The notes beneath the pieces are model-generated. The model was not told where the DNA came from. It was given only the letters and a program-made list of their open reading frames with translations, and did no database searches. Of a stretch of 64,000 nucleotides of DNA, positions 597 through 60,580 are shown piece after piece. Position 1 is the first letter of the stretch. Every line of letters starts with the position of its first letter. Both the position numbers and the translations under genes were made by a program. The DNA is from a virus (taxonomy: Duplodnaviria > Caudoviricetes): the IMG/VR virus record IMGVR_UViG_3300036766_002286, one strand, 5' to 3'.

Positions 597-1064
597 TTAG
601 ACAAATGTTGCTTGAGCTTGTTGACCGGCTGATAAATATTGACGATGCGATTTATCAATTTTCGCGTTTGTCAGATCAGCGCCATTAAAATTAGTATCCT
701 CCTTTCGATTAAGACCAATCCCTAAGTTAGCCTGACTCAAATCAGCGTCTGTTAGATTAGCATCACTCAAATTAGCACCTTTAAGATTAGCTTTAGTAAA
801 ATTAGCACCCTGCAAGTGAGCGTACATCAAACACGTCCAACTCAAATTAGCACCACTAAAATTCGCACCCTCAAGGTACGCACACCATAAAGTAGCTTTC
901 GTCAGATTAGATTCACTAAAATTAAACGCCACTAGTTCGCTATAATTAAAATCGACGTCTGTTAAATCCATCCCACTTAAATTAGGATCATCTATAAGAA
1001 CTTCACTTTAACTGTCCCGGCTTGCACTCTTCTTAGTACTTCCCCCTCTAGTAAGCCCGACCAT
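597..1064 (-). CDS. Pentapeptide repeat protein, N-terminus disrupted (intact ORF 597-971)
   Basis: A(N/D)L repeats; ATG 1064 with SD AAGGAGG is in frame but hits TAA; shifted frame gives LTRGEVLRRVQAG, like paralogue N-caps. Confidence 0.8.
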
Positions 1065-16222: not shown

Positions 16223-16522
16223 TTATAAAGATTCCGGCCATAATTTTTCAGTTTTCAAGTACTCTATTAAACTTGTCGCAGCACCCTCTGCAGAAAGTTT
16301 TGCGATCCACATTTCAAACATTATTTTGCCGATAGCATTATATGCATCTTTTTCGATAATTTTGTCATACTGTTCTTGGGTAAGTCCCGCAGCACTTAAT
16401 ACAATATGGATCATAACCCGCCAATTCCAATACGCCGCAAAGTCATCACGATCCACCGGCTCTTGAGTATACCCAATAACGTTATTTACATTATTTGGAT
16501 TTATTTCCTCTGATTCGTTTAT
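16223..16522 (-). CDS. Hypothetical, 'GLTQE' family, apparent ATA start
   Basis: Upstream frame reads (I)NESEEINPNN, matching the neighbour's MNESEEINPNN; GGAGG SD. Confidence 0.7.
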   Translation of the reverse strand: MNESEEINPNNVNNVIGYTQEPVDRDDFAAYWNWRVMIHIVLSAAGLTQEQYDKIIEKDAYNAIGKIMFEMWIAKLSAEGAATSLIEYLKTEKLWPESL

Positions 16523-17016
16523 AAAAGCCCTCCACTTCCAACAGGCCCTGTACTACTAGCTAAATTTGCATATTTAACATCAAGTTTCGTACCAGTGAAA
16601 TCAGCACCTTTAAAGCGTCTCGTATCTAAGTTATTAACATTTGTAAAATCAGCATTAGTCAAATTAGCATTGGTAAAGTCGGTCTCCTTGCATTGAGCAT
16701 TAGTCAAATTAGCGCGAGTAAAATTTCCATAGCCAAAATCCGCCGCCCACAACTCGGTATTTGTTAAATTAGCATCGGTGAAATTTGCTCCACCCATCTC
16801 AGCAAATCTAAAATCCGCTTCTGAAAAATCCGCTCCAGAAAAATTGACATCACACATACAAGCCCCTGAAAAATCAGCATTTCTAAAATCACAGCCAGTA
16901 AAATCTGTAGTATAGTCATTTAAGCCTAATGCCACGTCCCCGTCCCCTAAAATCATGATAGCAGGGCTTCCGTTTTTATCTATATATGCCACTTTACGAT
17001 ATGATGGTGTAGTCAT
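16519..17016 (-). CDS. Pentapeptide repeat protein
   Basis: ADF/ANF/ANL repeats. Confidence 0.92.
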   Translation of the reverse strand: MTTPSYRKVAYIDKNGSPAIMILGDGDVALGLNDYTTDFTGCDFRNADFSGACMCDVNFSGADFSEADFRFAEMGGANFTDANLTNTELWAADFGYGNFTRANLTNAQCKETDFTNANLTNADFTNVNNLDTRRFKGADFTGTKLDVKYANLASSTGPVGSGGLL

Positions 17017-21024: not shown

Positions 21025-21765
21025 TTAGAATCGCTCGGGATTGTAACCTTTCACGCCTTCTAAGACAGCATCTGTAAATATAGTTTTAGTTAAATTAGCT
21101 CCACGCATATCCACTCCAGTTAAATTAGCGCCTGTAAAGTTAGCTTCTTTCAGGTCTGCTTCATATAGATCCGCTTCACTCAAGTCAATTCCTGTAAAGT
21201 CTGCTCTGTGTAAATCTGCATTTCTAAGATTAGTTTTTTTAAAGTTAGCACCTTGTAATTTAGCTTCCCCTAATTTAATACCAGAAAGTTCTGCATTCTC
21301 TAGATTGGCCTCACGCAAGTCAACGTCGCACATATTTGCATTATGCAAACAAGCCGATCGCAAGTCTGCTTTATATAAAATTGCTGCAGTCATGTCAGAT
21401 TTTTGTGAGTTCAAGCCAAAACACTCAGTATTTGTCATATTAGCAAATCTTAGAGTAGCTCCATTCATACGGGCCCGAATCAAGCATGCACCTGTCAGGT
21501 CAGTTGAACTAAGATTAATATCTCCAAGCCACGCCTCTTGCAAATTAGCACCCTGCAAATGAGATTCTGATAGGTCATACTTATTTTTATCTACCAAAAT
21601 ATATTCAGCTAAAAATAGTCCTCTAAAATCAACTTCATCTAAAGTCACGCCCCGCCATGATTCCCCACGAGTTAAGGTAACTTTACCCCATCTTTTATGC
21701 TTGCATACAATAGTATTATTTCCTTTTGATTTCCATAATTGTACCATAAAAATTCTCCTTTTCAT
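21025..21765 (-). CDS. Pentapeptide repeat protein
   Basis: A(N/D)L repeats; GESW N-cap. Confidence 0.92.
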   Translation of the reverse strand: MKRRIFMVQLWKSKGNNTIVCKHKRWGKVTLTRGESWRGVTLDEVDFRGLFLAEYILVDKNKYDLSESHLQGANLQEAWLGDINLSSTDLTGACLIRARMNGATLRFANMTNTECFGLNSQKSDMTAAILYKADLRSACLHNANMCDVDLREANLENAELSGIKLGEAKLQGANFKKTNLRNADLHRADFTGIDLSEADLYEADLKEANFTGANLTGVDMRGANLTKTIFTDAVLEGVKGYNPERF

Positions 21766-21868: not shown

Positions 21869-22150
21869 ATGAAAAACTCAATTGAAGGTACTAAGGCGAT
21901 CACGAAATGTATAGATCTAGCAGCAGACAAATCTCTGTATCGCCCGCACGCTCTACAAGCCAGAAGCGAGCTGCAAGCTTTGTTAGATACGCAGGAGAGA
22001 ACATCAAAAATAGCAACTCAGCTCTACAACGAATTAAAACTTCATGACTTCTGTCGCGCTACCAGCGAAGAGTATGATCGAAGAGATGATCTAGGCGAAA
22101 GCTTCGAACAAGCCCTAGCTGACTATGAGCAAACCTTTCTAGGTAAGTAA
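21869..22150 (+). CDS. Hypothetical, related to the 29.4-31.7 kb cassette family
   Basis: TKAITKCI...ARSELQALLD. Confidence 0.7.
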   Translation: MKNSIEGTKAITKCIDLAADKSLYRPHALQARSELQALLDTQERTSKIATQLYNELKLHDFCRATSEEYDRRDDLGESFEQALADYEQTFLGK

Positions 22151-27078: not shown

Positions 27079-27312
27079 ATGAGCAGAGCAGACTACAAGA
27101 ATCAGAAAGTTCCAAATGATCTAACAACACCATTAGCTAATGTTCCTTTTAACGAAGTTCAAAAAAAGTCAGAAGAAGAATTCATGGCACTTTGTACAGA
27201 GGCAGAAAGACGTCTGACGACACCAGCAGCATTAGAGCAAGATCGCCGGTGCAAGGCAATCTTCCACGCAGCAGCTAAAGGTACTGCAGAACAAAAGGAG
27301 ATATCAAAATGA
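27079..27312 (+). CDS. Hypothetical protein
   Basis: GCCGGTATAGT promoter, GGAGG SD, ATGA overlap with HicB-like gene. Confidence 0.7.
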   Translation: MSRADYKNQKVPNDLTTPLANVPFNEVQKKSEEEFMALCTEAERRLTTPAALEQDRRCKAIFHAAAKGTAEQKEISK

Positions 27313-27641
27313 GTAACAGCAATCTCTCAAACCATAAACCATCCTTCAATGCTTCTCAACCAACCGGTTGCATTCCAGAGCAACTTATAGCAGCATATAT
27401 CGAACGTGTACTCAAACACATTACACTTGAACTTCTAGATGACGGCACTTGGTTTGCTATGACTCCATTAATTACAGATGTTTGGGGCGCTGGGACAAAT
27501 TCAGCCGCAGCCGAAGCTGACCTTCGTGAAGTCTTAGAAGAGTGGATTTTTATGACCCTAAGTGACTATAATAGTGAGGTACCAGTAATAGATGGCATGG
27601 ACCTAAATGTAATCAGGCTAGCAAGCTCACCTGGCCAGTAA
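27309..27641 (+). CDS. HicB family antitoxin-like protein (orphan)
   Basis: LLDDGTWFAMTPLITDVWGAGTNSAAAEADLREVLEEWI...VPVIDGMDL. Confidence 0.75.
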   Translation: MSNSNLSNHKPSFNASQPTGCIPEQLIAAYIERVLKHITLELLDDGTWFAMTPLITDVWGAGTNSAAAEADLREVLEEWIFMTLSDYNSEVPVIDGMDLNVIRLASSPGQ

Positions 27642-27737
27642 ATATTTAATTTCAATGCCATGCAACAAAGCCTGTAGTACTTGCAGTTGTAGAATTTGCC
27701 ATTACAGTAATAATATAGTTATTGAAGGAGAAGTGCA

Positions 27738-28388
27738 ATGAAACCCAATGTAAAATATACTGACCGCTATGGTAATTCCCAAGAATTACAATGGAACAAG
27801 TCATGGGAAGGTATAGATTTGGCCGGAGCTGACTTAAGAAACGTTAATTTGCGTGGTGCCGACCTGTCTGGCGCAAATTTACGTGAGGCCAATTTGCAGC
27901 ATGCGAACCTATACAGTGCTCGTTTACAAAAGACTGATCTGCAGCATGCTAATCTATCTGATACCGACCTGCGGAGTGTTTATATGCACAGTGCTGATCT
28001 AAAAGGCGCTAATTTAAGCGGAGCAAACACCGCCGGTGCTAATTTGGCTTTTGCTAACTTGCAAGGTGTTACTTTACATCCCAACAGTTTAAATGGCGTT
28101 ACCCTAGGTGGAGCTAATTTGACTAATATTAATCTATCTGGTATTGATTTGCGTTACACTAATTTTTTTGGTGCTTGTCTGGCTGGCGCTGATTTATCTA
28201 ACACCGAGTTGCTCGCCACTGACCTGACTAACGCTGATTTGACTGACGCTAATCTTTACGGTGCTAATTTAGAAGGCGCTAATCTGGGCAATGCCATACT
28301 ATCTATCAAACAACAAACCGAGTGCATCGGGTATAATCTAGCTTTACGGATAGACAAGTCACAGGTAAATTGCGGTTGTGATGAATAG
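27738..28388 (+). CDS. Pentapeptide repeat protein
   Basis: VKYTDRYGNSQELQW N-cap, ADL/ANL repeats. Confidence 0.93.
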   Translation: MKPNVKYTDRYGNSQELQWNKSWEGIDLAGADLRNVNLRGADLSGANLREANLQHANLYSARLQKTDLQHANLSDTDLRSVYMHSADLKGANLSGANTAGANLAFANLQGVTLHPNSLNGVTLGGANLTNINLSGIDLRYTNFFGACLAGADLSNTELLATDLTNADLTDANLYGANLEGANLGNAILSIKQQTECIGYNLALRIDKSQVNCGCDE

Positions 28389-28635
28389 TTTAACAAAAGT
28401 TACAGACGGGAGGCATCAATGTAATCTTCCTTATAAAAGTTCCGAGTATCCCAAGGGCGAGTATGGATACGCAGGTGATATTTACCAGTGCGAGTGTGGT
28501 ATCTACTATCAAGTTAAAAGAGAAAGCGAATATGGTAGGTTAATAGAATGGAAAAAACTTTCGAAAAGCATGGTCGCCTCTATGGTAAAAGGCAAGCAAA
28601 TCACAAAGAAACTAAAAGGGCGGTCCAATGGGTAA
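28381..28635 (+). CDS. Small Cys/His hypothetical protein
   Basis: HQC..CECG; coupled between pentapeptide genes. Confidence 0.65.
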   Translation: MNSLTKVTDGRHQCNLPYKSSEYPKGEYGYAGDIYQCECGIYYQVKRESEYGRLIEWKKLSKSMVASMVKGKQITKKLKGRSNG

Positions 28636-29044
28636 GAAAAATATAAACTATATTGATAGCCAAGGTACCAGACAAGAACTTATTTGGGGCGAATCTTGGG
28701 TAGGTAAAAACCTATCCAGTGTCGATCTATATGGCGCTGATTTACGTGAAGCTGACCTATCCAGAGCAAACCTAGCGCATGCTAATTTGTCTTGTGCCGA
28801 TCTGCAGGGTGCTGACCTGCATGTAGCTTATTTGTATGGTATTAAGCTAAAAGGAGCAAACCTACGAGACGTTAATTTGAGTGGCGCTAATTTATCACAT
28901 GCTAATCTTGTCAACGCTGACTTAACCAACGCAGAGTTGCATGGTACCAATTTATTGGGCGCTGATTTAACAAATGTCGTATTGTCTGAGCATCAAAAAG
29001 AAGTAAGCATAAATTACAGCGAAACTATAGGACAAGCTCTATGA
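28628..29044 (+). CDS. Pentapeptide repeat protein
   Basis: YID..G..QELIWGESW N-cap. Confidence 0.93.
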   Translation: MGKKNINYIDSQGTRQELIWGESWVGKNLSSVDLYGADLREADLSRANLAHANLSCADLQGADLHVAYLYGIKLKGANLRDVNLSGANLSHANLVNADLTNAELHGTNLLGADLTNVVLSEHQKEVSINYSETIGQAL

Positions 29045-29081
29045 AAATTGCAAAATTCAGTTTAACAGTACAGGCACCAAA

Positions 29082-29444
29082 ATGACCGTTCTATCAACTG
29101 GTGCAGAAAAAAGAATTACTGATGCCCTCATTAAAACGAATTTGGCGTTGGATGCAGTAATAAAAGCAAACAAGCAGCAGCTTGCAGCCAAGTCCGCGCT
29201 CCGCCTCGCAATCAAAGGTCCAACATCACTAGGCAACACGAGTATTACAGGCAAAGTCACATTAGCCAGAACAGACGGGCGTCAAGTCATAACCCCATAT
29301 AGAAGTTATTTAGCAGTTGATATTTCGTGGTTGGATTTTCTTGCCACCCAACCAGCCGCCGACTATATCCAAAAAGAGTGGGATGAAACAAAGCAAGGCG
29401 TTCTCCTTCGTTCCCCTGTTATTCGCCGCGGCAAGGAAGCATAA
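29082..29444 (+). CDS. Hypothetical protein
   Basis: 120 aa ORF in coupled array. Confidence 0.55.
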   Translation: MTVLSTGAEKRITDALIKTNLALDAVIKANKQQLAAKSALRLAIKGPTSLGNTSITGKVTLARTDGRQVITPYRSYLAVDISWLDFLATQPAADYIQKEWDETKQGVLLRSPVIRRGKEA

Positions 29445-29647
29445 TGACCACACCACTAATAGACCTATCGCCTCTAGTCCTTCGAGACATTTTGTCTACT
29501 TATTTGACTGAACACCCCAGGCAATCCATGTATGTGCTGCACGCAACATATATGCTGCAGCACCTCGTAGATGACAGGCAACAGTTGTAGGCCCGTGTTA
29601 CAGAATTAGAAACCGAAAACAAACAACTCAAAGGAGAAATGAAATGA
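29444..29647 (+). pseudogene. Cassette-family gene with in-frame TAG at 29588-29590
   Basis: MTTPLIDL...LVDDRQQL*ARVTELETENKQLKGEMK. Confidence 0.7.
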
Positions 29648-29985
29648 ATGAAACACAACAAGTGACTGCTCCACCAACCGACGCAATCTTGTGTTGCCTA
29701 GAACAAGTAAGATATCCATATTCTCGTGTCAAAGAGGCAAGAACAGAGCTGCAGGCATTACAGAATGCACTCGCAGTAAAAGACGGCATGTTGCAGGTAG
29801 CGAATGCAACAGTGAAAGCGCAAAGGGCGACGATAGCGGAACAAGATGTGCGTATCGCAGAACTAGAAACCAAATGTTCGGAAGCTGCAACTATTCTTGC
29901 GAAATTTTCTTATATTCTAACAACAAAAACTAGTGTCGAAAAAACGGTCGCATTGGCTCAACTAATAAAGGAATATCATCTATGA
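29644..29985 (+). CDS. Cassette-family hypothetical
   Basis: PPTDAI...ARTELQAL...RIAELE. Confidence 0.75.
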   Translation: MNETQQVTAPPTDAILCCLEQVRYPYSRVKEARTELQALQNALAVKDGMLQVANATVKAQRATIAEQDVRIAELETKCSEAATILAKFSYILTTKTSVEKTVALAQLIKEYHL

Positions 29986-30023
29986 TCACCAAAAACCAAC
30001 AACTCAAAGGAGAAATGAAATGA
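29982..30023 (+). other. 13-codon 'empty cassette' mini-ORF MITKNQQLKGEMK
   Basis: ATGA overlaps at both ends; 26-nt direct repeat of 29622-29647. Confidence 0.6.
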
Positions 30024-30280
30024 GCAATACGACCGCACCACCAACCACCGCAATTTATAAAGCTATCAAAGAGATGTGGGATCCTCGGGACAGAGAGGAT
30101 GCCGCCAACGAGATGCGGGCGTGGATAGATGACCGACATCGACTTCAAATCAGGGTTCTCGAACTAGAAAGCGCAAGAATGCTGTCTATCAGGGGGATAG
30201 GCATTCTCATTGATAAGTCAGACAACATGACTGAAGCCGAAAAAGCTGAAGCTCGCAAATTGCTTTTGGGGACGCTATGA
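30020..30280 (+). CDS. Cassette-family hypothetical
   Basis: PPTTAI...IDDRHRLQIRVLELE. Confidence 0.75.
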   Translation: MSNTTAPPTTAIYKAIKEMWDPRDREDAANEMRAWIDDRHRLQIRVLELESARMLSIRGIGILIDKSDNMTEAEKAEARKLLLGTL

Positions 30281-30486
30281 TAACGCCACTAACTGACCCA
30301 ATTCGAAGGGTGATTAACTGGGACGACGTTCAAGCCGAAGACGGACTTAGTGAACTCAAACTCGCAGTCGCCCATGCATGGAATGTTCCCGGATGTCAAA
30401 AGAGAGCTAAAGCTGAAGTGCAGGCATTGTTAGATGATAACCTGCAGTTACGAGCCGAAAACAAGCTACTCAAAGGAGAAAGTTAA
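30277..30486 (+). CDS. Cassette-family hypothetical
   Basis: PLTDPI...VQALLDD...LKGES. Confidence 0.75.
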   Translation: MITPLTDPIRRVINWDDVQAEDGLSELKLAVAHAWNVPGCQKRAKAEVQALLDDNLQLRAENKLLKGES

Positions 30487-30932
30487 TGAGCAATGAAATC
30501 ACACAAGCAATCGCCGCAAGCAACCACGAAGCGCTACGCCACCCGACCATTTCAGACAGCCTTATATACGGCGCAATCAGCGACTGTATTTATTGGGTTG
30601 ATAATTCACAACTCGCGGACGAAACATCTCCCAAAGCGTGGGAGCAGTTGTGGAACTTGTTGAATTCCCGTGCAACCAAAGACGCACGAATAGCAAAACT
30701 AGAAAGGCAACTCAGACGTCCAACCGAGGCAACCAATCACGTTGCACTACTCAACGAGAGCCTTCTTATATATGACGCAAGCATCGAATGCATCAAGTTC
30801 GCTGATGGTTCAAAAGTCTGGTTCGAAACAGTCCCCAAAGCGCGTAAACAGTTGCGAGACTTGTTGGTGGTGCTAACAACGAAAGACACACGAATAGTAG
30901 AACTAGAAAAGCAGCTCAAAGGAAAAAGCTAA
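30486..30932 (+). CDS. Cassette-family hypothetical with internal duplication
   Basis: Two copies of LIY.A...CI...D.S....ET.PKA..QL..LL....TKD.RI..LE.QL. Confidence 0.8.
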   Translation: MSNEITQAIAASNHEALRHPTISDSLIYGAISDCIYWVDNSQLADETSPKAWEQLWNLLNSRATKDARIAKLERQLRRPTEATNHVALLNESLLIYDASIECIKFADGSKVWFETVPKARKQLRDLLVVLTTKDTRIVELEKQLKGKS

Positions 30933-31231
30933 TGAGCAATGAAACCACACCACCAACCAACGCAATCCGCCGGGCAATTGAGCAAGCATGTGAAACCGGT
31001 TATGGTCCCAGACACAACGCGGACCACCAGTTGGATGCCTTGTTGGCTGCACTCAAAGAAACACAAACACTGGCTGGCAAGTTGTTGGATATGGCCACCG
31101 AAGCAGAAACGAAACTCACCATGAGGGATGCACGAATAGTAGAACTAGAAAACACCATTAAAAGGACTGAAATGGAAACAGAAAGAGAAATGGAACTTGA
31201 CGCAGAAATTGAGGCAGGGAAAGATTGGTGA
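30932..31231 (+). CDS. Cassette-family hypothetical
   Basis: PPTNAIRRAIE...DARIVELE. Confidence 0.75.
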   Translation: MSNETTPPTNAIRRAIEQACETGYGPRHNADHQLDALLAALKETQTLAGKLLDMATEAETKLTMRDARIVELENTIKRTEMETEREMELDAEIEAGKDW

Positions 31232-31479
31232 TGACTACGGAACTCCCACCAACCAACGCAATCCGCGAGGCTATCGAATTGGTTCAACTCGAAGATATAG
31301 AAAGTTGGCAAAAACTCGCAAACCAAGCCCCAGAGCAGTTGCAATTTTTGATAGATGACCACGCACGCGTGCAAAATCTAGTGACAGTGAACGGGGCATA
31401 TAGTGATAACCCAGAAGCGGACGCTTACTGGGACTCGTGGAGGGAATGCCATGACAACATTCAAAGAACAACTGGATAA
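31231..31479 (+). CDS. Cassette-family hypothetical
   Basis: PPTNAIREAIE...QLQFLIDD. Confidence 0.75.
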   Translation: MTTELPPTNAIREAIELVQLEDIESWQKLANQAPEQLQFLIDDHARVQNLVTVNGAYSDNPEADAYWDSWRECHDNIQRTTG

Positions 31480-31699
31480 AGATGTTAATGATGCGGTGAA
31501 CGCCTGCATCGCTGCAAATGAAACATTTGGTGCTCTTAAGTATGCAGTACGACTTAACCCGGAAACAGCCAATGGTGCTCAAGAAGATCTTGAAACTGCT
31601 CAGGCAGCAGCGTGGCACTCACAATCAGTACTCAGCAATGCAGTCTCGGCAAGGAACGAAGAAACCACCCGACTTGCACAAGGAGGTGCACCGCGATGA
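31451..31699 (+). CDS. Ala-rich helical hypothetical protein
   Basis: GGAGGG SD. Confidence 0.6.
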   Translation: MTTFKEQLDKDVNDAVNACIAANETFGALKYAVRLNPETANGAQEDLETAQAAAWHSQSVLSNAVSARNEETTRLAQGGAPR

Positions 31700-31849
31700 A
31701 ATATATCTGGAGCCCAGGCAAACGCACGAATAACAGAACTAGAAAACCAACCAAAGGAGAATCAACATGAGTAAACATACCAGTAAACAAGTCTTATCTA
31801 AAATAAGAAACAATAAGTTCGCTAGGAACTACCTGGCAGGAGGCATCTA

Positions 31850-32257
31850 ATGACTGATCAAATTTGGGCCGGCATTTATAGTGATAAGCTGGCAGCTCAA
31901 AGTAAATATGACACTGCTGTTTTTGCTAAACAAGCAGCACTAGACACCGCCAACCAAGCAGATCAAGCTTGGGTTTCTGCCAAAAAAGTTCTAATTAATA
32001 ATGAGAACGGTTGTTTAGATTCATATCAAGCAACTATTGAAGCCAAGAAAGTCTGCAATAAAGCATTTCATATTAAAATTGCGGCCCAATCTGTCTTAGA
32101 TACAGCAGTTGCTTTTCTAATGGAAGCCACAACCACACTCGAGACCGCAAATGCCAAATGGCACGCGGCTACGTCAACTTCAACACCAAGACACTTTCTA
32201 GCAGAGAGATCTGATAATGAGCACCAACCTCCAAATTGGTCTTGGCAAAATACCTAG
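31850..32257 (+). CDS. Ala-rich helical hypothetical protein
   Basis: AGGAGG SD. Confidence 0.65.
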   Translation: MTDQIWAGIYSDKLAAQSKYDTAVFAKQAALDTANQADQAWVSAKKVLINNENGCLDSYQATIEAKKVCNKAFHIKIAAQSVLDTAVAFLMEATTTLETANAKWHAATSTSTPRHFLAERSDNEHQPPNWSWQNT

Positions 32258-32278
32258 TATCTAGCAAACGTCTGAATT

Positions 32279-32857
32279 ATGTCTAGAAAACCTAAACTTA
32301 CTAGGGCCGATGTTATTGCATATTGTGCAGAGGGCATTGATTTATATAAAGCTGATTTACGTCATTTAGACTTTACAAATGCCGATCTAACCCATGCAAA
32401 ATTTAACGAAGCTAACCTGTCTGGCTGCAATTTAACTGGAGCAACGATGGCCGGCGCTGATTTATGCAATGCTAATCTTTCATCTGCTATTTTAGTAGAT
32501 GTTAATCTCACTAGAGTAGCAGCTGTAGGTGCTAATTTTATTAATGCAGACATGTCCCGTATTAACATGTGCGGATATGGCGACTATTCAACTAATTTAG
32601 CCGTCTCAAAACTTGCGGGATGTAATTTGCACAACTCCGATTTGCGTGGAGTTATTTTACTACAAGCAGATTTACGTAAAGCTAATTTTAGTTATGCTAA
32701 TTTACAAGGTGCGTATTTACGACAGGCGTATTTGTCTGGTGCTAATTTTTCATATGCTGAGCTGCATGGGACCAATTTATGGGAGGCTGACCTGACTGAT
32801 GTTATACTATCTGAGCACCAGAAAGCAGTAAGCAAACACTATGGAACAAAACCTTGA
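32279..32857 (+). CDS. Pentapeptide repeat protein
   Basis: LTRADVI N-cap; VILSEHQKAVS C-cap. Confidence 0.93.
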   Translation: MSRKPKLTRADVIAYCAEGIDLYKADLRHLDFTNADLTHAKFNEANLSGCNLTGATMAGADLCNANLSSAILVDVNLTRVAAVGANFINADMSRINMCGYGDYSTNLAVSKLAGCNLHNSDLRGVILLQADLRKANFSYANLQGAYLRQAYLSGANFSYAELHGTNLWEADLTDVILSEHQKAVSKHYGTKP

Positions 32858-35664: not shown

Positions 35665-36009
35665 TTATTTTATTGTTTTAGTAAATTTTATAGGCGTGAA
35701 TTTATGTGCTTTTTCGGCCTCGGCCATTGCCGCTTCAAATGCCCACAAGTCGCACCACGCCTGATTAAGTTTTTCATCTTCATCTGGCTGTCCGCTACTT
35801 GCTTTAGCGGCTGCATTACTAGCAACTGCCCTGTCTCCGATCTTTAGTGCCTTTTCTAATAGTTCTTCAGCATTACGGAGTTCTTCAAATCCGAGCTCCA
35901 TAGATTCTTTACTGGGAATATTGCGCTCCCCTAAAAGTGCTGCGCGAACGCGTTCTACCGCACGTACTATGATATTATTTTCTGGAAATATATTAGGGAA
36001 ATTAAACAT
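35665..36009 (-). CDS. Hypothetical, 'GQPD.QEK' family
   Basis: GQPDEDEKLNQAWCDL...AEKAHKF. Confidence 0.75.
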   Translation of the reverse strand: MFNFPNIFPENNIIVRAVERVRAALLGERNIPSKESMELGFEELRNAEELLEKALKIGDRAVASNAAAKASSGQPDEDEKLNQAWCDLWAFEAAMAEAEKAHKFTPIKFTKTIK

Positions 36010-36358
36010 CTGTGTCCTTGTTAGTTTCTTCAGGTTTATTGGATATTTTTACGTTATTTAATATAAGCATGTATGTGTTGAATGCTGTCGTATGTCTGGC
36101 TACAGCTTTCTTCAATTTTTCTATATTAGCGTGATTCTGTTCAGTAGCGGCCGCAAATGTTTCAGTTGCTGCTTTTAAGACATTGATATTATGGCCTCGT
36201 GCAGCTTCCAGAGCTGCCGCTTCTGCTTTCTTTACAAGAATGCTACTCGCGTCTGTCTTTGCAAATAATATGGCGCATTCCGCATCCGCGTCCGTGTACT
36301 CTGCAAATGCTGCTTCCAATTTTACTGTGTTATCTTCCAAAATTCCTCCCTTCTTCAA
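36002..36358 (-). CDS. Hypothetical, 'N.EKL' helical family
   Basis: VL..A.E.F...NIEKLKKAV.RH. Confidence 0.7.
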   Translation of the reverse strand: MKKGGILEDNTVKLEAAFAEYTDADAECAILFAKTDASSILVKKAEAAALEAARGHNINVLKAATETFAAATEQNHANIEKLKKAVARHTTAFNTYMLILNNVKISNKPEETNKDTDV

Positions 36359-36375
36359 TATCTACAATTCTCTGA

Positions 36376-36603
36376 TCAATCGTTTGAAATGGGCGTGCGC
36401 GGTTGGAATCCGGTACCATCCATATTACCTTTTTCGATACAGGTAGGACAACGTGTAGTTTCAAGCTCAACGATTCTAGCTGCCTGAGCCACATAGCTGT
36501 TTAAAATATCCTGTAATTGGTGACTGGCGGCTCTGATCTCGGCCGGTGTTCCATACTTATTTATAATATATTCTATTGCACTAGTTTGCCTTGAGAAGTC
36601 CAT
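36376..36603 (-). CDS. Cassette-family hypothetical (dispersed copy)
   Basis: TSAI...QLQDILN...ARIVELET. Confidence 0.7.
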   Translation of the reverse strand: MDFSRQTSAIEYIINKYGTPAEIRAASHQLQDILNSYVAQAARIVELETTRCPTCIEKGNMDGTGFQPRTPISND

Positions 36604-44175: not shown

Positions 44176-44345
44176 GTCGCCAATAAGGTCCTCTACCGTT
44201 CCTTTTGAGTGTTGTTTAGTGACACTTTAGGAGCTCGATCTTGCGACCGAACAGTTCTTGTTTTATACAACCATTGCTGGTTGCTTTAAGATTGACGCTT
44301 CATCGGCCACAACGTTTATATCTGACATTAAAGATACTTTAGTTT
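44176..44345 (-). ncRNA. Putative omegaRNA of the first TnpB
   Basis: TCGGTC-GCAA-GATCGA hairpin; scaffold ends AACGG; guide would start TAGAGGACCTTATTGG; 5' limit approximate. Confidence 0.55.
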
Positions 44346-45707
44346 TATGTAGGCCTCCGCGTCCAGTCCCCGAGCTACTCTCGGAGGTATTGCATAAACC
44401 CAACTTTGCTAGGTTTATTGCTGCGTTCAGATCTCTATCGATGATAAGCCCGCAGTTATTACATTTGAACTCTCGTTCAGAGAGAAGTAGTTTGGCTTTC
44501 ACTACCTCACACCGTGAACAAGTCTTACTTGACGGATACCACTGGTCGGCTTGTATTAAAACAGATCCGTACCAGGCAGTCTTATATTTTAATTGCCGTA
44601 TAAATTCCCCCCAGCCGGCATCATATATTGCTTTGCTTAAATGATGATTCTGGGCCATACCAAGAATGCCCAATGTCTCAACTACGATAACGTCACAAGT
44701 TTTGGCTAGAAATGTGGTGCTTTTGTTAATGACATCCCGGCGGACGTTTGCGATATTGCGCTGAACTCTGGTTACTCTGCTGTTAGCTTTTTTCCAGCGT
44801 GCGGAAGGTTCCACTCCGGGAGCTGGACCTATCTTGCGGGCGGCCTTGCGTTGTGCTCGGCACAGTGACTGTTCTGATTGTTTAGTATGTTTAGGATTAG
44901 GAACGTCTAGTATAGTATTCCCATTACAGTCGGCTACCTTATATAGGGTTGTCACACCGAGGTCAACCCCAACTATTTTCACAGGGAGACGCGTCGGGGT
45001 GATCGCCGCTTCTACTTCTACCGTGAAGCTGACAAACCATTTCCCGCCCGAGCGCGAAAGAGTTGCACTCAAAATACGGGCAGTAGCTGCCTCAATTCTC
45101 CGAGCCAGCTTACGGGTACTTTCGTGAGTGCGGATCTGACCTATAACTGGAAGAAGTACATGGTGACGATCGACAGTCACCCCAATGTTCCCTGTCGTGA
45201 ACCGAACACTCTCATGTTGGCCGCGTTTATGGTACTTAGGAAACCCGACTGATTTACCTTTACGTTTTCCTGTTAAAGAATCGCGATGGTTCGATAACCC
45301 CAAAGATAATCGTTTAGTCCCATCCGAGTAGGCTTCTTTAGAGTTCTCTCTCCACCATGGAGCAACAATGTCTTTCTTTGCGTTCCAATGCTTTCTTAAA
45401 TCATAATGTGAGCTTGGAAAATAGGGTGTCAGTTCATTTTCCGCCACACCGGAGGCGATCTCAGCTTTTCTTTGATCGCGAGCGGCTTTCACACAGCTGA
45501 GAAGATAATTGTAAGCATATCTGGAGGCTCCCACATGAGAATGAAATGCTCGCTCCTGAGTAGGGGATGGATCTAGTGCGAACTTGTAAGCTCGATGGAT
45601 TACACTCATAAAGGTTTAACTTGTTCAAGTGCCAGCTTTGTCAGCCCAATCAGATGTAACATATACCTATTATCGTTACCAGATGTCATTAAATGACACT
45701 TGAGGCC
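44196..45707 (-). mobile_element. Non-autonomous IS607-like element (tnpB only)
   Basis: Right end ...GGAACGG; GG at proposed left end; AAGTGTCA near both ends; no tnpA. Confidence 0.6.
44263..45609 (-). CDS. tnpB: TnpB RNA-guided nuclease, RuvC triad intact
   Basis: AYKFALDP, VGVDLG, IVVETL, PSSKTCSRC, CxxC, DRDLNAAIN. Confidence 0.95.
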   Translation of the reverse strand: MSVIHRAYKFALDPSPTQERAFHSHVGASRYAYNYLLSCVKAARDQRKAEIASGVAENELTPYFPSSHYDLRKHWNAKKDIVAPWWRENSKEAYSDGTKRLSLGLSNHRDSLTGKRKGKSVGFPKYHKRGQHESVRFTTGNIGVTVDRHHVLLPVIGQIRTHESTRKLARRIEAATARILSATLSRSGGKWFVSFTVEVEAAITPTRLPVKIVGVDLGVTTLYKVADCNGNTILDVPNPKHTKQSEQSLCRAQRKAARKIGPAPGVEPSARWKKANSRVTRVQRNIANVRRDVINKSTTFLAKTCDVIVVETLGILGMAQNHHLSKAIYDAGWGEFIRQLKYKTAWYGSVLIQADQWYPSSKTCSRCEVVKAKLLLSEREFKCNNCGLIIDRDLNAAINLAKLGLCNTSESSSGTGRGGLHKTKVSLMSDINVVADEASILKQPAMVV

Positions 45708-45746: not shown

Positions 45747-46860
45747 TTGAACCTCTCTACGGACTTCTCCGAGAGATTTCGGAGAATTATCCGACATGGC
45801 ATAACTCTTTTATATTCGAGGCCAGCTCCTGGCCCAATATTAGAGTGTTCACAGCCGCGTTAATATCGCGATCGTGTTTGGTTCCACAACCACTACACTT
45901 CCAATGTCTTACTGTCATCATGTCCCAACCTGTAGGGCCTGTTAAGGCCTCACAGTTTGAGCATGTACGAGTGGAATTCTTAGAAGGAACTTCAATATAA
46001 CGCGTACCGAAGGCTCGGCTCTTGTATGCGAGTTGTCTTTGAAGCTCCCCGTGACTGGCTGCAGCCACTGACTTTCCTAGCTTTTTGCTATACCTCCAAT
46101 ATTATCTTTAGAGAATGCTATAAAAGAATTTTCTTGTACTAGACGTAGTGACTGTTTATGGTTACGGTCTTTACACTGGTTTTTGGTTCGTTCTTGTATT
46201 CTGGCCGCCAGTTTACGATTTTTACCGCGTTGAGCTTGGCCTAGACGTTTTTGGGATTGTTGTGCTTCTTTAGGATGAGGAATTTTCTCACCAGTTGATA
46301 AGGTTAGTAAATCTATAAATCCGGGATCTATACCAATTTTACCAAAAGCTTTACGCTCAATAGGTGCCCGGTCCGCATCAATAAAAAGACACAAATACCA
46401 TCCAGAGGCACGTTTTAATATACGACCGCATTTAATTTTACCTGTGGGAAGAGTTTGTTTATGAAAACGTACTTGACCTATACTCGGCAATTTAATGCAG
46501 TTACCTTCAGGCGCACTAATAGGGTCTGGAAATGGTATAGAGTTTAGCTTACGGCGGTTGCCTTTCAGTTTAGGTTTACCACCGAGTTTTTTGAAACACT
46601 TCTGCCAGGAGGTATAAACAGTATCTAATATGCCTTGAAGGGTGTGACTTGGAATACCAATTTTCTTTCCGTGGCCAGCGAGAAGATTTATGAAATCGTA
46701 GCGCGTATAATAAATACCATATTTAGCATCTTGCTCGATCTTACGAATAGCCCAGTTATAAACTCCAGTAAGAGAAAATAACCAGTCGTTCATTTCTTTT
46801 TCTTGTTTCGGTGTAAGTCTGAGTTTAACCTGGTGCTGGATCATATGATTGTTACGTACA
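45747..46860 (-). mobile_element. Non-autonomous IS200/IS605-like element (tnpB only); left end approximate
   Basis: Subterminal hairpin CTCTCGGA-GAAG-TCCGTAGAGAG followed by GTTCAA right end. Confidence 0.65.
45787..46844 (-). CDS. tnpB: TnpB, split by a single-base deletion near 46082
   Basis: KIGIDPG, restored GIAKKLGKSVAAASHG, STRTCSNC, WKCSGC, HDRDINAAVN. Confidence 0.88.
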
Positions 46861-51245: not shown

Positions 51246-51938
51246 ATGAAAGAAAGAATAAAGTATATCGATGGCCAGGGCAACCCTCAAGAGCTAATAG
51301 GCGACCACCCCCAAACATCTATTAGTCTATCTAATGTCGCACTCGCCGGCGCAGATTTATCTGGCGCACAGTTGCCAGGAGTTAGCGCATATAACATGGA
51401 TTTGACGCGTATAAATCTATCCGGAGCAAATCTAGCTAATGCGGACTTTTCTATGTCGAAACTCTCTTACGCCAACTTATCCGGAGCCGATTTGTCTTTT
51501 GCAGATCTTAGCGGGGCTGATTTGACAAACGCTATTCTAACCAACACTAATTTGCGGTTTGCAATTTTAACAGACACAGACCTGTCTGGAGCTATCCTAT
51601 CCGGAGCTGTTTTAGCAGACGTATCTGCTCTCCGTGTTAACTTACAAGACACCTATCTAAAACATGCTGATCTATCTCGCGCTTTTCTGCAGGAAGCAGA
51701 GCTATCAAATGCTGATTTAACTGACGCAAATTTGACTAAAGCAGATCTCAGTGAAGCTAATTTATGTAAGGCCAACTTAACTAACGCTAATCTAACTGAC
51801 GCTGATTTAGAATTAGCGGCCCTGGTTCACACTAATTTAACTGGTGCTAATATAGAGGGCGCAAGTATAGAGCACAGTTTGCGTCAATCGACAATAATGC
51901 CAGACGGCACAACACAAGGTAATACTTATACAAAGTAA
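51246..51938 (+). CDS. Pentapeptide repeat protein
   Basis: IKYID..GNPQEL cap; ADL repeats; TIMPDG end. Confidence 0.93.
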   Translation: MKERIKYIDGQGNPQELIGDHPQTSISLSNVALAGADLSGAQLPGVSAYNMDLTRINLSGANLANADFSMSKLSYANLSGADLSFADLSGADLTNAILTNTNLRFAILTDTDLSGAILSGAVLADVSALRVNLQDTYLKHADLSRAFLQEAELSNADLTDANLTKADLSEANLCKANLTNANLTDADLELAALVHTNLTGANIEGASIEHSLRQSTIMPDGTTQGNTYTK

Positions 51939-51969: not shown

Positions 51970-52674
51970 ATGAGACCAAATGTAAAATACATGGATCGCA
52001 ACAGTGATCCACAAGAGCTGCAATGGGGAGAGTCCTGGATAAATATTGATCTCACCCGAGCAGACTTAACCGGCGCCGATTTATCTCTTGGGGAACTGGG
52101 AGGAGTACGCATATCCGGAGCCAACCTTACTAACGCTAATCTGTCTGGAGCATATCTTGAGGGAGTAGAGTTGATTCGAGCTAGTCTTTACGGTGCAGAC
52201 TTATCTAATACAAATATTATGAATGGGCAACTAGCTTATGCAAATTTATCTAATGCAAACTTGACAAAAGCTTACTTAGGCGGCGCCAACTTGAGCTATG
52301 CAAATTTTTCTCATGCAAATTTATCTAATACAGATTTTAAAGAAGCTAAGTTAATTGAAACAAACCTAGAAGCAGTAGATCTCTCTAATGCTGATTTATC
52401 GCATGCAGACTTAACTGGAGCAAATTTAACAAAAGCACGTATGATTAATACAGACCTAACCTGGTCAAATCTAACAGGATCTAATTTAACTATGGCAACT
52501 CTAACTCATGTAAATCTAGCTAATTCAGATTTAACTTGTGCGATCCTAGCTGGTACATTATTGGATAACTGTAATTTAAGTGACACAATCACAACTTATG
52601 TTGATTTGTTTAATATAAATTTAAGTACATGTACGCTCGTCGGCGCTAATGGGTATTATCAGGTATGGAAGTAA
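51970..52674 (+). CDS. Pentapeptide repeat protein
   Basis: VKYMD...PQELQWGESW cap. Confidence 0.93.
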   Translation: MRPNVKYMDRNSDPQELQWGESWINIDLTRADLTGADLSLGELGGVRISGANLTNANLSGAYLEGVELIRASLYGADLSNTNIMNGQLAYANLSNANLTKAYLGGANLSYANFSHANLSNTDFKEAKLIETNLEAVDLSNADLSHADLTGANLTKARMINTDLTWSNLTGSNLTMATLTHVNLANSDLTCAILAGTLLDNCNLSDTITTYVDLFNINLSTCTLVGANGYYQVWK

Positions 52675-56900: not shown

Positions 56901-57665
56901 CTATTGTACTATTTTGCTGTCATAGTATGTGCCGTCTTGACCGCAGAGTTCTATATATCTATGATAAGCACCTTGGTTGTTTGTAGTAACGTTCAATCTA
57001 TTAGACCCGCTCACGTCGCATCCCAACATCGTCGCTTCCGTTAGGTCCGCCCCTCTAAAATCTACATCTCTTAGATCAGACTTACTAAAGTCCGCTCCAG
57101 CTAATACACATCCAACCATACTAGCTCCTCTTAAATTGCTTCCTCTAATATTAGAAACAAGCATATAAGCACCGTCCAAGTTAGCATATTGTAAATTAAC
57201 ATCGTCTAAACAAGCAGCTATCAAGCCAGCACAGAATTTATCAATTCCAGCCATATTTATTTCACTCATATCAGCGCCCGTAAAATTTGCTCCATTTGCG
57301 CAAGCTCTAGTCAAGTTTGCGCACTTTAGATTACTTTTTGGAAACTGGGCTTCTTCTAGTATAGCTCCAGATAAATTAGCACGCCTTAAGTTAGCGCTTG
57401 CAAAAATAGCTTTTCCCATTGCAGATCTAACCATAGTGGCAGAAGCCAAATCAGCAAAACTAAAATCTGCACCCGTAAGCTTAGCTTCGTCTAAATGTGT
57501 TCCAATTAGAATAGCGCCTTTCAAATTCGCTCCATTCAAATTCGCACCACGTAAATCTAAGCCGGACAAGTCTATATTGGTTAGATCCCGCCCGCTCATC
57601 TCAATTCCACAAGCCACGTTTTCCAGCACCTCTTGTCGGCTTATTTTCGCACTCATCGAAGTCAC
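56901..57665 (-). CDS. Pentapeptide repeat protein
   Basis: ISRQEVL cap; repeats. Confidence 0.93.
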   Translation of the reverse strand: MTSMSAKISRQEVLENVACGIEMSGRDLTNIDLSGLDLRGANLNGANLKGAILIGTHLDEAKLTGADFSFADLASATMVRSAMGKAIFASANLRRANLSGAILEEAQFPKSNLKCANLTRACANGANFTGADMSEINMAGIDKFCAGLIAACLDDVNLQYANLDGAYMLVSNIRGSNLRGASMVGCVLAGADFSKSDLRDVDFRGADLTEATMLGCDVSGSNRLNVTTNNQGAYHRYIELCGQDGTYYDSKIVQ

Positions 57666-59875: not shown

Positions 59876-60580
59876 TCAAATTATCTCTCCCATTGGCCCT
59901 AACTGGATCGTCTCCAGGCCTGTGCCACCCAAGGTTGCCTGTGTAAAGTTAGCACCGCGCATAAGATTATTTTCTGGAAGTATAGCGTAACTCAAATCAG
60001 CTCCGTAAAAGTCTGCTTCTGTTAAATTTGCGCAAGTAAAATTACAATTATTCAGTTTCGCGCCTGAAAATACAGCCCTATACAAATCTACTCCTAACAT
60101 ATTTGCATCTAGAAGATTCGCCCCAGTAAACTTCGCCCATCTCAAATCTGCACTATAAGATGAAAGTCCCGCCAGCATCGCATTACTCAGATTTGCATCC
60201 GCAAATGATGCAAATCGAGCCTCACTCCTAGTTAAATTAACAAAACTCATGTTAGCACCATTCAAGATACCACAAACCAAATTTACTCCAGCCATGTTAG
60301 CTCGAACCATAGTTGCGCATCTGAAGTTAGCCCCCTCCAGGTTAGCTCGAACCAATATCGTTTCAAATAGGTTTGCGCCTATAAAATTTGCCCCATGGCA
60401 ATTTGCAAAGCTTAAATTAGCGTAACTAAGATTTGTCTCAATCATTTGTGTATTATGGAGCTCTAAATAAGACATGTTAATATGAGACAAATCTAAACCG
60501 CTTAAATTTTTCTGCGCCATTGATTTGCCAGTTTTAATATTATCTATGACATCTTCTCGAGTTAGTTTTTTCTCCAACAT
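59876..60580 (-). CDS. Pentapeptide repeat protein
   Basis: LTREDVI cap; repeats. Confidence 0.93.
   Translation of the reverse strand: MLEKKLTREDVIDNIKTGKSMAQKNLSGLDLSHINMSYLELHNTQMIETNLSYANLSFANCHGANFIGANLFETILVRANLEGANFRCATMVRANMAGVNLVCGILNGANMSFVNLTRSEARFASFADANLSNAMLAGLSSYSADLRWAKFTGANLLDANMLGVDLYRAVFSGAKLNNCNFTCANLTEADFYGADLSYAILPENNLMRGANFTQATLGGTGLETIQLGPMGEII

Follow-up and report, generated by a model that had tools for sequence, protein, structure and literature searches.

Why should a row of neighbouring small genes share nearly constant ends and differ in their middles? The question is raised by a stretch of 64,000 nucleotides (nt), hereafter the window, from the virus record IMGVR_UViG_3300036766_002286 (Duplodnaviria; Caudoviricetes), in which such genes lie head to tail on the plus strand between 29444 and 31777. 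An earlier description made from the letters alone (the sequence-only reading) took the constant ends for the boundaries of gene cassettes, in an array that diversifies by recombination and produces variable coiled-coil effectors. The evidence assembled here favours a different answer. With a probability of roughly 0.6, the locus is an old, tandem, translationally coupled family of dimeric coiled-coil proteins, within which recombination at motif-encoding DNA has been occasional.

The array holds eight units of one protein family in seven overlapping genes (29444-31777), along with a 13-codon relic open reading frame (ORF) and a stranded C-terminal block; two dispersed members lie outside it, at 21869 and 36376. 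Much of the original description was borne out. The coupled genes that it had placed at 29444-31771 number seven and overlap by 1 or 4 nt, and the repeated DNA blocks are where it had put them and far exceed chance expectation. The exact repeats measure 26 nt (29622/29998), 22 nt (30889/31131), 21 nt (30950/31246) and 15 nt (30484/30930). Degenerate patterns for the N-terminal (N) and C-terminal (C) blocks match four times in the window against 0.04 expected and five times against 0.06 expected, respectively, and only within the array. A profile built from the units and run over the 1285 six-frame ORFs of the window recovers every unit (expect value (E) 1e-12 to 1e-38). It also finds both of the dispersed members that had been proposed, at 21869 (+) and 36376 (-), with E of about 1e-5.

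What had been regarded as cassette boundaries are instead protein motifs found throughout a family and placed at a predicted dimer interface, combined with the ribosome-binding site of the next gene. Judged by sequence conservation, the constant blocks are family-wide protein motifs, because they recur in unrelated metagenome proteins. A profile search of 1.84 billion representatives returned 28 proteins at E<=1e-3, including the window's own nine. Some 16-19 further small proteins (48-156 amino acids (aa)), encoded on metagenome contigs from ENA, Logan and JGI, have an identical succession of three motifs. These outside members begin M-(T/S)-x-(L/P)-P-T-D-A-I-x3-I, continue through a variable 10-25 residues to A-x2-QLQALLDAL and then, sometimes past a coil insert, to (K/Q)DARIAELE, and finish in a variable tail. 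They are spread over different contigs of 0.5-94 kb, with P0022 on one of 94 kb, P0010 on 53 kb, P0018 on 32 kb and P0016 on 23 kb. P0023 and P0025 are both recorded on contigs of 3,362 nt, and P0024 and P0029 both on contigs of 1,554 nt; these matching sizes hint that tandem copies are usual elsewhere too. Within the array, all three motifs (LPTDAI, QLQALLDAL and KDARIAELE) are present in units B, C, E1, E2 and F, and are degenerate in A, D and G. The cores of the genes, described earlier as divergent, are indeed variable but not wholly so, as a third conserved block, A-x2-(Q/E)L-x-ALLD, runs through the middles.

On the searches made, the family appears to be rare and previously undescribed, and all of its known members are metagenomic. 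Pfam, PHROGs and PDB sequences gave no family match beyond weak coiled-coil noise, most of it under the cut-off of the family concerned. A word-index search with unit F returned F alone, and with the family profile one more protein, while tblastn of the outside member P0017 against 50,697 phage and 72,556 plasmid records found no match. Scans of viral (including IMG/VR), genome and metagenome contigs with the family alignment or single members yielded no confirmed locus, and a search of the literature on giant elements and phage multigene families found nothing relevant. Most members are acidic, with isoelectric points of 4.2-5.2, and several bear Cys-rich inserts in their variable parts.

Structure prediction offers a reason for the constancy of the motifs. 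Unit F, modelled by AlphaFold2 with a 26-row family alignment, reaches a predicted local distance difference test score (pLDDT) of 89, with helices at residues 9-21 and 27-96 and a loop between them. As a homodimer, F scored 0.55, compared with 0.00 for the best of three controls. The mark for a dimer is reached by 20 of 30 proteins solved as one-chain pairs and by 1 of 23 solved as single chains, counts that give only a rough benchmark as a custom alignment was used. At least 59% of contacts agree among the dimer runs, and the pLDDT of the partner is at least 77. The lowest-error contacts pair each residue with its own counterpart (72:72, 69:69, 65:65 and 41:41); the predicted coiled coil is therefore parallel and in register. 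The predicted interface includes the conserved residues L34, L37, L41, I69 and L72, as well as T9, I12, R13 and I16 of the N-terminal helix.

The family's proteins are thus probably parallel homodimeric coiled coils held together by conserved heptad residues. In the model, the three conserved blocks would form the scaffold, and the loop, inserts and tail would be the exposed variable parts. The constant ends can be understood as structural scaffold because the conserved blocks map to the predicted dimer interface. The small coiled-coil products foreseen by the sequence-only reading agree with both the monomer model and the homodimer prediction. For the fused gene E, modelling gave nothing informative (pLDDT 55). 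A fold search of viral models (BFVD) found no match at E<=0.001, and the ESM Atlas gave just unnamed clusters and generic helical look-alikes.

The very end of the genes appears to be conserved for translation. At the junctions from 29082 to 31479, stop and start codons overlap by 1 or 4 nt (ATGA, TAATG or TGATG), and the seamless run breaks only at two in-frame stops. AAGGAG-like sites lie 7-9 nt 5′ of most starts. The LKGE tail is encoded by CTC AAA GGA GAA and contains AAAGGAGA, which at five junctions is placed 7-9 nt before the next ATG. From this placement, the LKGE end is the Shine-Dalgarno (SD) sequence of the following gene, and its codons are constrained at the nucleotide level because that site lies within them. 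Promoter-like and terminator-like sites are not commoner in the array than in shuffled sequence. Taken together, the overlaps, the SD sites and this lack of excess make co-transcription with translational coupling the simplest reading. The array is embedded in a longer same-strand gene run (27079-32857), within which it is probably co-transcribed and translated by termination-reinitiation coupling.

The individual units illustrate how closely coupling and decay are interwoven. Unit A (29444-29590; 48 codons; profile E 1e-12) shares 1 nt of its start with the stop of the gene at 29082-29444. On one point the sequence-only reading needs correcting: the unit is truncated by an in-frame TAG (29588-29590), past which its end block continues in frame (29591-29647). 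This continuation encodes the C block ARVTELE and an LKGE tail with the SD for unit B, and its TGA overlaps the ATG of B. Unit B (29644-29985; 113 aa) has three complete motifs and a long C-terminal tail. At 29982-30023, where a start had been reported as joined directly to an end block, there is a real 13-codon ORF in which the start of an A/D-type unit is fused straight to the end block. This mini-ORF has an ATGA overlap with both B and C and bears the SD for C, and its junction matches the A/B junction at 33 of 35 nt. It looks like a coupling relay that keeps translation coupled across an apparent internal deletion of an A/D-type unit.

Unit C (30020-30280; 86 aa) is assigned by the family profile, and unit D (30277-30486; 69 aa) has the variant N motif PLTDPI and a shortened C block. 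The double cassette described at 30486 is gene E (30486-30932; 148 aa), a head-to-tail fusion of E1 (30486-30713) and E2 (30714-30929) from which the stop/start junction has been lost. Its internal duplication has a period of 204 nt and 71% nucleotide identity, and the unit profile detects two domains in it. Unit F (30932-31231; 99 aa), the one chosen for modelling and dimer prediction, is followed by unit G (31231-31479; 82 aa), whose N block equals that of F over 21 nt and whose C block is degenerate. The next gene, ORF H (31451-31699; 82 aa), shares 29 nt with G, starts behind a GGAGGG SD of its own and runs to TGA 31697-31699; by profile it falls outside the family, a further correction to the earlier description. 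The stranded end block noticed near 31720-31765 lies at 31724-31750, in the frame of H behind its TGA (segment 31700-31777; block ARITELE). It supplies a AAAGGAGA SD to a 27-codon ORF (31767-31850), the stop of which overlaps the start of the gene at 31850-32257. Two dispersed members complete the set: the diverged 21869-22150 (+; 93 aa; profile E 1.3e-5) and 36376-36603 (-; 75 aa), which has a CPTC-containing tail and its nearest relative in P0028, on an 81-kb metagenome contig.

Shortly 3′ of each in-frame stop, TAG 29588-29590 and TGA 31697-31699, the zipper block of the family is intact and in frame, and reading either stop as sense would restore the overlap with the next ORF. The stops fit recent nonsense mutations, and programmed read-through is also possible.

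Is the array still being rearranged? Nei-Gojobori (NG86) estimates give a synonymous divergence (dS) of 1-3 and a ratio of nonsynonymous to synonymous divergence (omega) below 1 for most paralogue pairs. Only E1, E2 and F depart from this pattern, with dS of 0.28-0.60 and omega of 1.0-2.5 over 46-67 codons. In a maximum-likelihood tree the window units are not monophyletic: eight label changes separate them from outside members, the same as for shuffled labels. The tree supports only E1+E2 (97/91) and 36376+P0028 (100/99) and is essentially star-like, so that the order of duplication is not readable. By these measures the array is old and not actively churning, because most pairs are synonymously saturated and the window units form no clade; a local duplication with fusion is its one recent event.

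Dedicated machinery for shuffling was also sought. Pfam scans of about 40 window ORFs found no integrase, in keeping with the sequence-only reading, and no other site-specific recombinase or reverse transcriptase. No attC-like inverted repeats occur at the junctions within 29400-31800, where the one weak inverted repeat lies inside unit B. The mismatches among E1, E2 and F have no adenine-specific pattern and are spread over all four bases. An integron model was therefore rejected for want of attC-like repeats at the junctions and of an IntI-type integrase in the ORFs scanned, and a diversity-generating retroelement model because those ORFs include no reverse transcriptase and the mismatches are not adenine-specific. 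The only recombination- or transposon-related genes found in the window are two IS605 OrfB/TnpB-like genes 13-15 kb from the array. An independent Logan assembly of the sole matching public run, probably that of the source sample, contains one 24-kb contig on which the array is identical, with no alternative joints; at about 42x word depth, and with contigs hiding rare variants, this is weak evidence on variation.

These observations bear on the idea of an ongoing, recombination-driven system in which the DNA blocks at gene ends are substrates and the cores are shuffled like cassettes into new effectors on short time-scales. Such a system would accommodate the exact 21-26-nt tracts that connect otherwise diverged neighbours, the omega of at least 1 among E1, E2 and F, the fused, deleted and stranded units, the mosaic proteins outside the window, and a codon identity in the N and C blocks that exceeds expectation while the middle block is saturated. 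It is hard to reconcile with dS of 1-3 in most pairs and the lack of a window clade, with blocks that are conserved in unrelated metagenomes and lie at a predicted dimer interface, and with the absence of a recombinase or reverse transcriptase (in the ORFs scanned), of a structured site (29400-31800) and, rare variants aside, of any new joint in the Logan contig. We regard it as very improbable. The proposal of recombination-driven diversification thus survives as a record of past events and not as continuing exchange.

That record is most readily seen in codon choice. Leaving E1 and E2 out of the count and scoring pairs of identical residues for identical codons, the N block has identical codons in 48 of 73 pairs (about 26 expected), the C block in 26 of 38 (about 16 expected) and the tail in 13 of 20 (about 8 expected). 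The middle block, equally conserved as protein, has them in 31 of 74 pairs against about 27 expected. Identity in the N and C blocks is therefore about 1.7 times the codon-usage expectation, a sign of nucleotide-level similarity that tempers the saturation of most pairs, which by itself weakens the active-cassette reading. For the tail, the placement of the SD explains the excess. The longest identity tracts (21-26 nt) join neighbouring units, and F and G use the same codon at 7 of 7 positions inside their 21-nt tract and at 0 of 3 identical residues directly after it.

Could the same figures arise with no recombination at all? Static, ancient paralogues might resemble one another through protein constraint, codon bias and selection on translation-initiation regions. 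The tail block is, after all, an SD; the N block lies 15-40 nt past each start, where A/C-rich unstructured codons would be preferred; codon usage in the array is skewed and T-poor; and a test for clustering of identical codons into runs was not significant. However, selection on mRNA near start codons fails for the C block of B, C and F, because that block sits 80-130 nt from the next start, and it nevertheless shares GAACTAGAA and longer tracts. The abrupt change in codon agreement at the edge of the F/G block is likewise unexpected for static paralogues, and gene E, the mini-ORF with its 33/35-nt junction and the mosaic outside proteins require recombination or deletion events. A wholly static array is thus unlikely.

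Footprints of past recombination within the array comprise the fused double unit, the internally deleted unit and the stranded tail. Outside it, family members are mosaics joined at the conserved blocks. For example, P0017 and P0022 are identical at residues 1-37 and unrelated afterwards, and P0022 and P0016 match in their tails. The codon excess in the N and C blocks, the fused and deleted units and the mosaic outside members together lead us to infer homologous exchange or gene conversion at motif-encoding DNA, occasional and on an evolutionary time-scale. A more radical version would have the motif-encoding DNA act as recombination handles, making the units recombinase-free coding cassettes that swap loops and tails within and between arrays and so yield a shifting repertoire of binders or inhibitors. 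In that version the stops at TAG 29588 and TGA 31697 could be read through to give isoforms with and without the zipper. We consider it quite unlikely, slightly more so than a static array.

The account we prefer, an old coupled family with occasional exchange, can be put together as follows. The array would sit on a sediment element of about 616 kb (616,293 nt), and each unit would encode a small, mostly acidic protein in which a short N-terminal helix bearing (L/P)PTDAI-x3-I is followed by a variable loop. One long helix would come next, in which the conserved heptads of QLQALLDAL and KDARIAELE form a parallel, in-register homodimer on which the N-terminal helix packs. The variable surfaces would be the loop, the optional coil inserts and the C-terminal tail. 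The family would evolve by birth and death, with occasional duplication as in E1/E2/F. Unequal or illegitimate recombination and short-tract gene conversion at motif DNA would account for gene E, the mini-ORF, the stranded tail and the 21-26-nt tracts, and nonsense mutations (TAG 29588 and TGA 31697) would contribute as well.

Several points weigh against this account. The dimer is only predicted, and coiled coils are easy for such models. Co-transcription is deduced solely from gene spacing. The omega of at least 1 in E1, E2 and F comes from 46-67 codons, for which relaxed constraint is an equally possible cause, and the codon excess of the N block could reflect mRNA selection near start codons. 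Identical codons did not cluster significantly along pairs in a permutation test. Finally, Pfam, PHROGs, PDB, BFVD folds and the ESM Atlas contain no informative relative that bears on function.

What might such proteins do? A tentative suggestion, which we hold at somewhat less than even odds, is that they are diversified binders or inhibitors that act on host or competitor proteins. This guess draws on the dimeric scaffold with its variable loops and tails, on the acidity of the proteins, on a paralogue expansion whose recent part has omega of at least 1, and on the pentapeptide-repeat genes nearby. A role as packaged or injected proteins of a virus-like particle, with the N-terminal motif as a targeting or processing signal much like the capsid-targeting sequence of T4 internal proteins, would fit an invariant short motif that lies within 12 residues of the N-terminus in small acidic proteins that otherwise vary greatly. 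Yet in the predictions the N-terminal helix belongs to the fold and touches the partner chain; the window ORFs scanned include no gene for a capsid, portal or prohead protease; and neither 50,697 phage records nor IMG/VR gave a match. A packaged role is therefore less likely than a binder or inhibitor role, and of all the possibilities weighed here it is the one to which we give least credence.

Phage and bacterial genomes offer several precedents for parts of this arrangement. The closest in working principle is the modular shuffling at PeSL cassettes in the hyperplastic regions of T4-type phages, where short DNA blocks recur between small genes that are non-essential and of unknown function (PMC2839356). 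Nearby PeSL copies recombine homologously, so that genes are inserted, deleted or replaced (Arbiol et al. 2010, PMC2839356). In the sections of that article available here, PeSLs are described as intergenic promoter and terminator stem-loops, each gene being its own transcription unit (PMC2839356). The array resembles PeSL regions, as portrayed in those sections, in consisting of small genes with short repeated DNA blocks. Unlike the PeSLs described there, its repeats are in-frame coding motifs plus an embedded SD, the genes overlap by 1-4 nt with no intergenic space, the array has no stem-loops, and one arrangement is seen.

Integron cassette arrays likewise line up short ORFs of one orientation, with repeated sequence at the junctions and expression from upstream; their marks are foldable, imperfect inverted repeats (attC) at each cassette boundary and an adjacent IntI tyrosine recombinase with attI and a Pc promoter. 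The array differs from them in having no attC-like repeats at its junctions and no IntI-type integrase in the ORFs scanned; moreover, its units are paralogues of one family and not unrelated genes, and its repeats are translated. Diversity-generating retroelements also localize variability within a conserved protein scaffold, by means of a reverse transcriptase and a template repeat whose adenines match the variable positions, but the array has no template/variable repeat pair and no reverse transcriptase in the ORFs scanned.

Two further comparisons concern the proteins themselves. The internal-protein (IP) genes of T4-type phages encode small, very variable proteins with a shared N-terminal capsid-targeting sequence, at a plastic locus. 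The array's proteins are similarly small and variable with a short conserved N-terminal peptide, but two more internal motifs are conserved in this family and the N motif is predicted to be structural. Orphan toxin/immunity modules downstream of cdiA or rhs are tandem reservoirs for homologous recombination into a large expressed gene, and lack starts of their own. Here too a conserved coding segment stands beside variable parts, and truncated and stranded pieces occur. In contrast to those modules, each unit of the array is equipped with a start and SD of its own; no domain of toxin or immunity type was detected, and the products are 50-150-aa predicted helical dimers. The array is best filed as a further example of a tandem, translationally coupled accessory multigene family on a mobile element, the protein family itself being undescribed.

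The locus thus brings to light a rare family of small, acidic coiled-coil proteins that had no name before, with about 30 representatives among the 1.84 billion. Its members appear to occur as multi-copy arrays on large environmental mobile elements, near many pentapeptide-repeat genes. It also suggests that conserved ends and a variable middle can arise without a cassette system, from a scaffold, a ribosome-binding site embedded in the coding sequence and occasional homologous exchange. Distinguishing scaffold and SD from cassette should help in searches for new diversification systems. Should the proteins prove to be inhibitors directed at hosts or rivals, the array would be a compact natural library of binders on one dimeric scaffold.

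The variable parts of some members have features of their own. CxxC-type Cys clusters occur in those of 36376-36603 (-), P0028, P0012, P0018 and P0029; the first two share CPTC, and P0029 has eight Cys. These clusters may be small zinc-binding add-ons to the coiled-coil scaffold. The C-terminal residues of P0010 (QGDKQ), P0018 (KGNKQ) and P0024 (QGDKP) resemble the KGE/KGK tails in the window, and could embed a GGAG-type ribosome-binding site for a coupled downstream gene.

Among the neighbouring genes, pentapeptide repeats stand out. At least ten such genes occur in the 64 kb (Pfam PF00805, E 1e-26 to 1e-51): 597-971 (-), 16519-17016 (-), 21025-21765 (-), 27738-28388 (+), 28628-29044 (+), 32279-32857 (+), 51246-51938 (+), 51970-52674 (+), 56901-57665 (-) and 59876-60580 (-). 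This density amounts to an unusually dense expansion of a DNA-mimic-type fold. Three of them belong to the gene run 27079-32857, which by Pfam scan also includes a UPF0150/HicB-like gene. Farther away on the minus strand, Pfam identifies the two IS605 OrfB/TnpB-like genes, one with a Cas12f1-like TNB domain (44263-45609) and a shorter one without a TNB-domain match (46077-46844).

The composition of the array region is distinctive: the GC content of 30001-32000 is 0.46, as against about 0.39-0.42 in the flanks, and the AT skew is +0.30. T is scarce on the coding strand, and codon usage leans to CCA, GCA, ACC and ATC. Lastly, by eye, ORF H and the 135-aa gene at 31850-32257 have in common a short (A/H)-(A/S)-QSVL-x2-AV and an Ala/Gln-rich helical composition. 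These two, possibly with 29082-29444 and 36002-36358 (-), may represent a second family of small helical paralogues that flanks the array.

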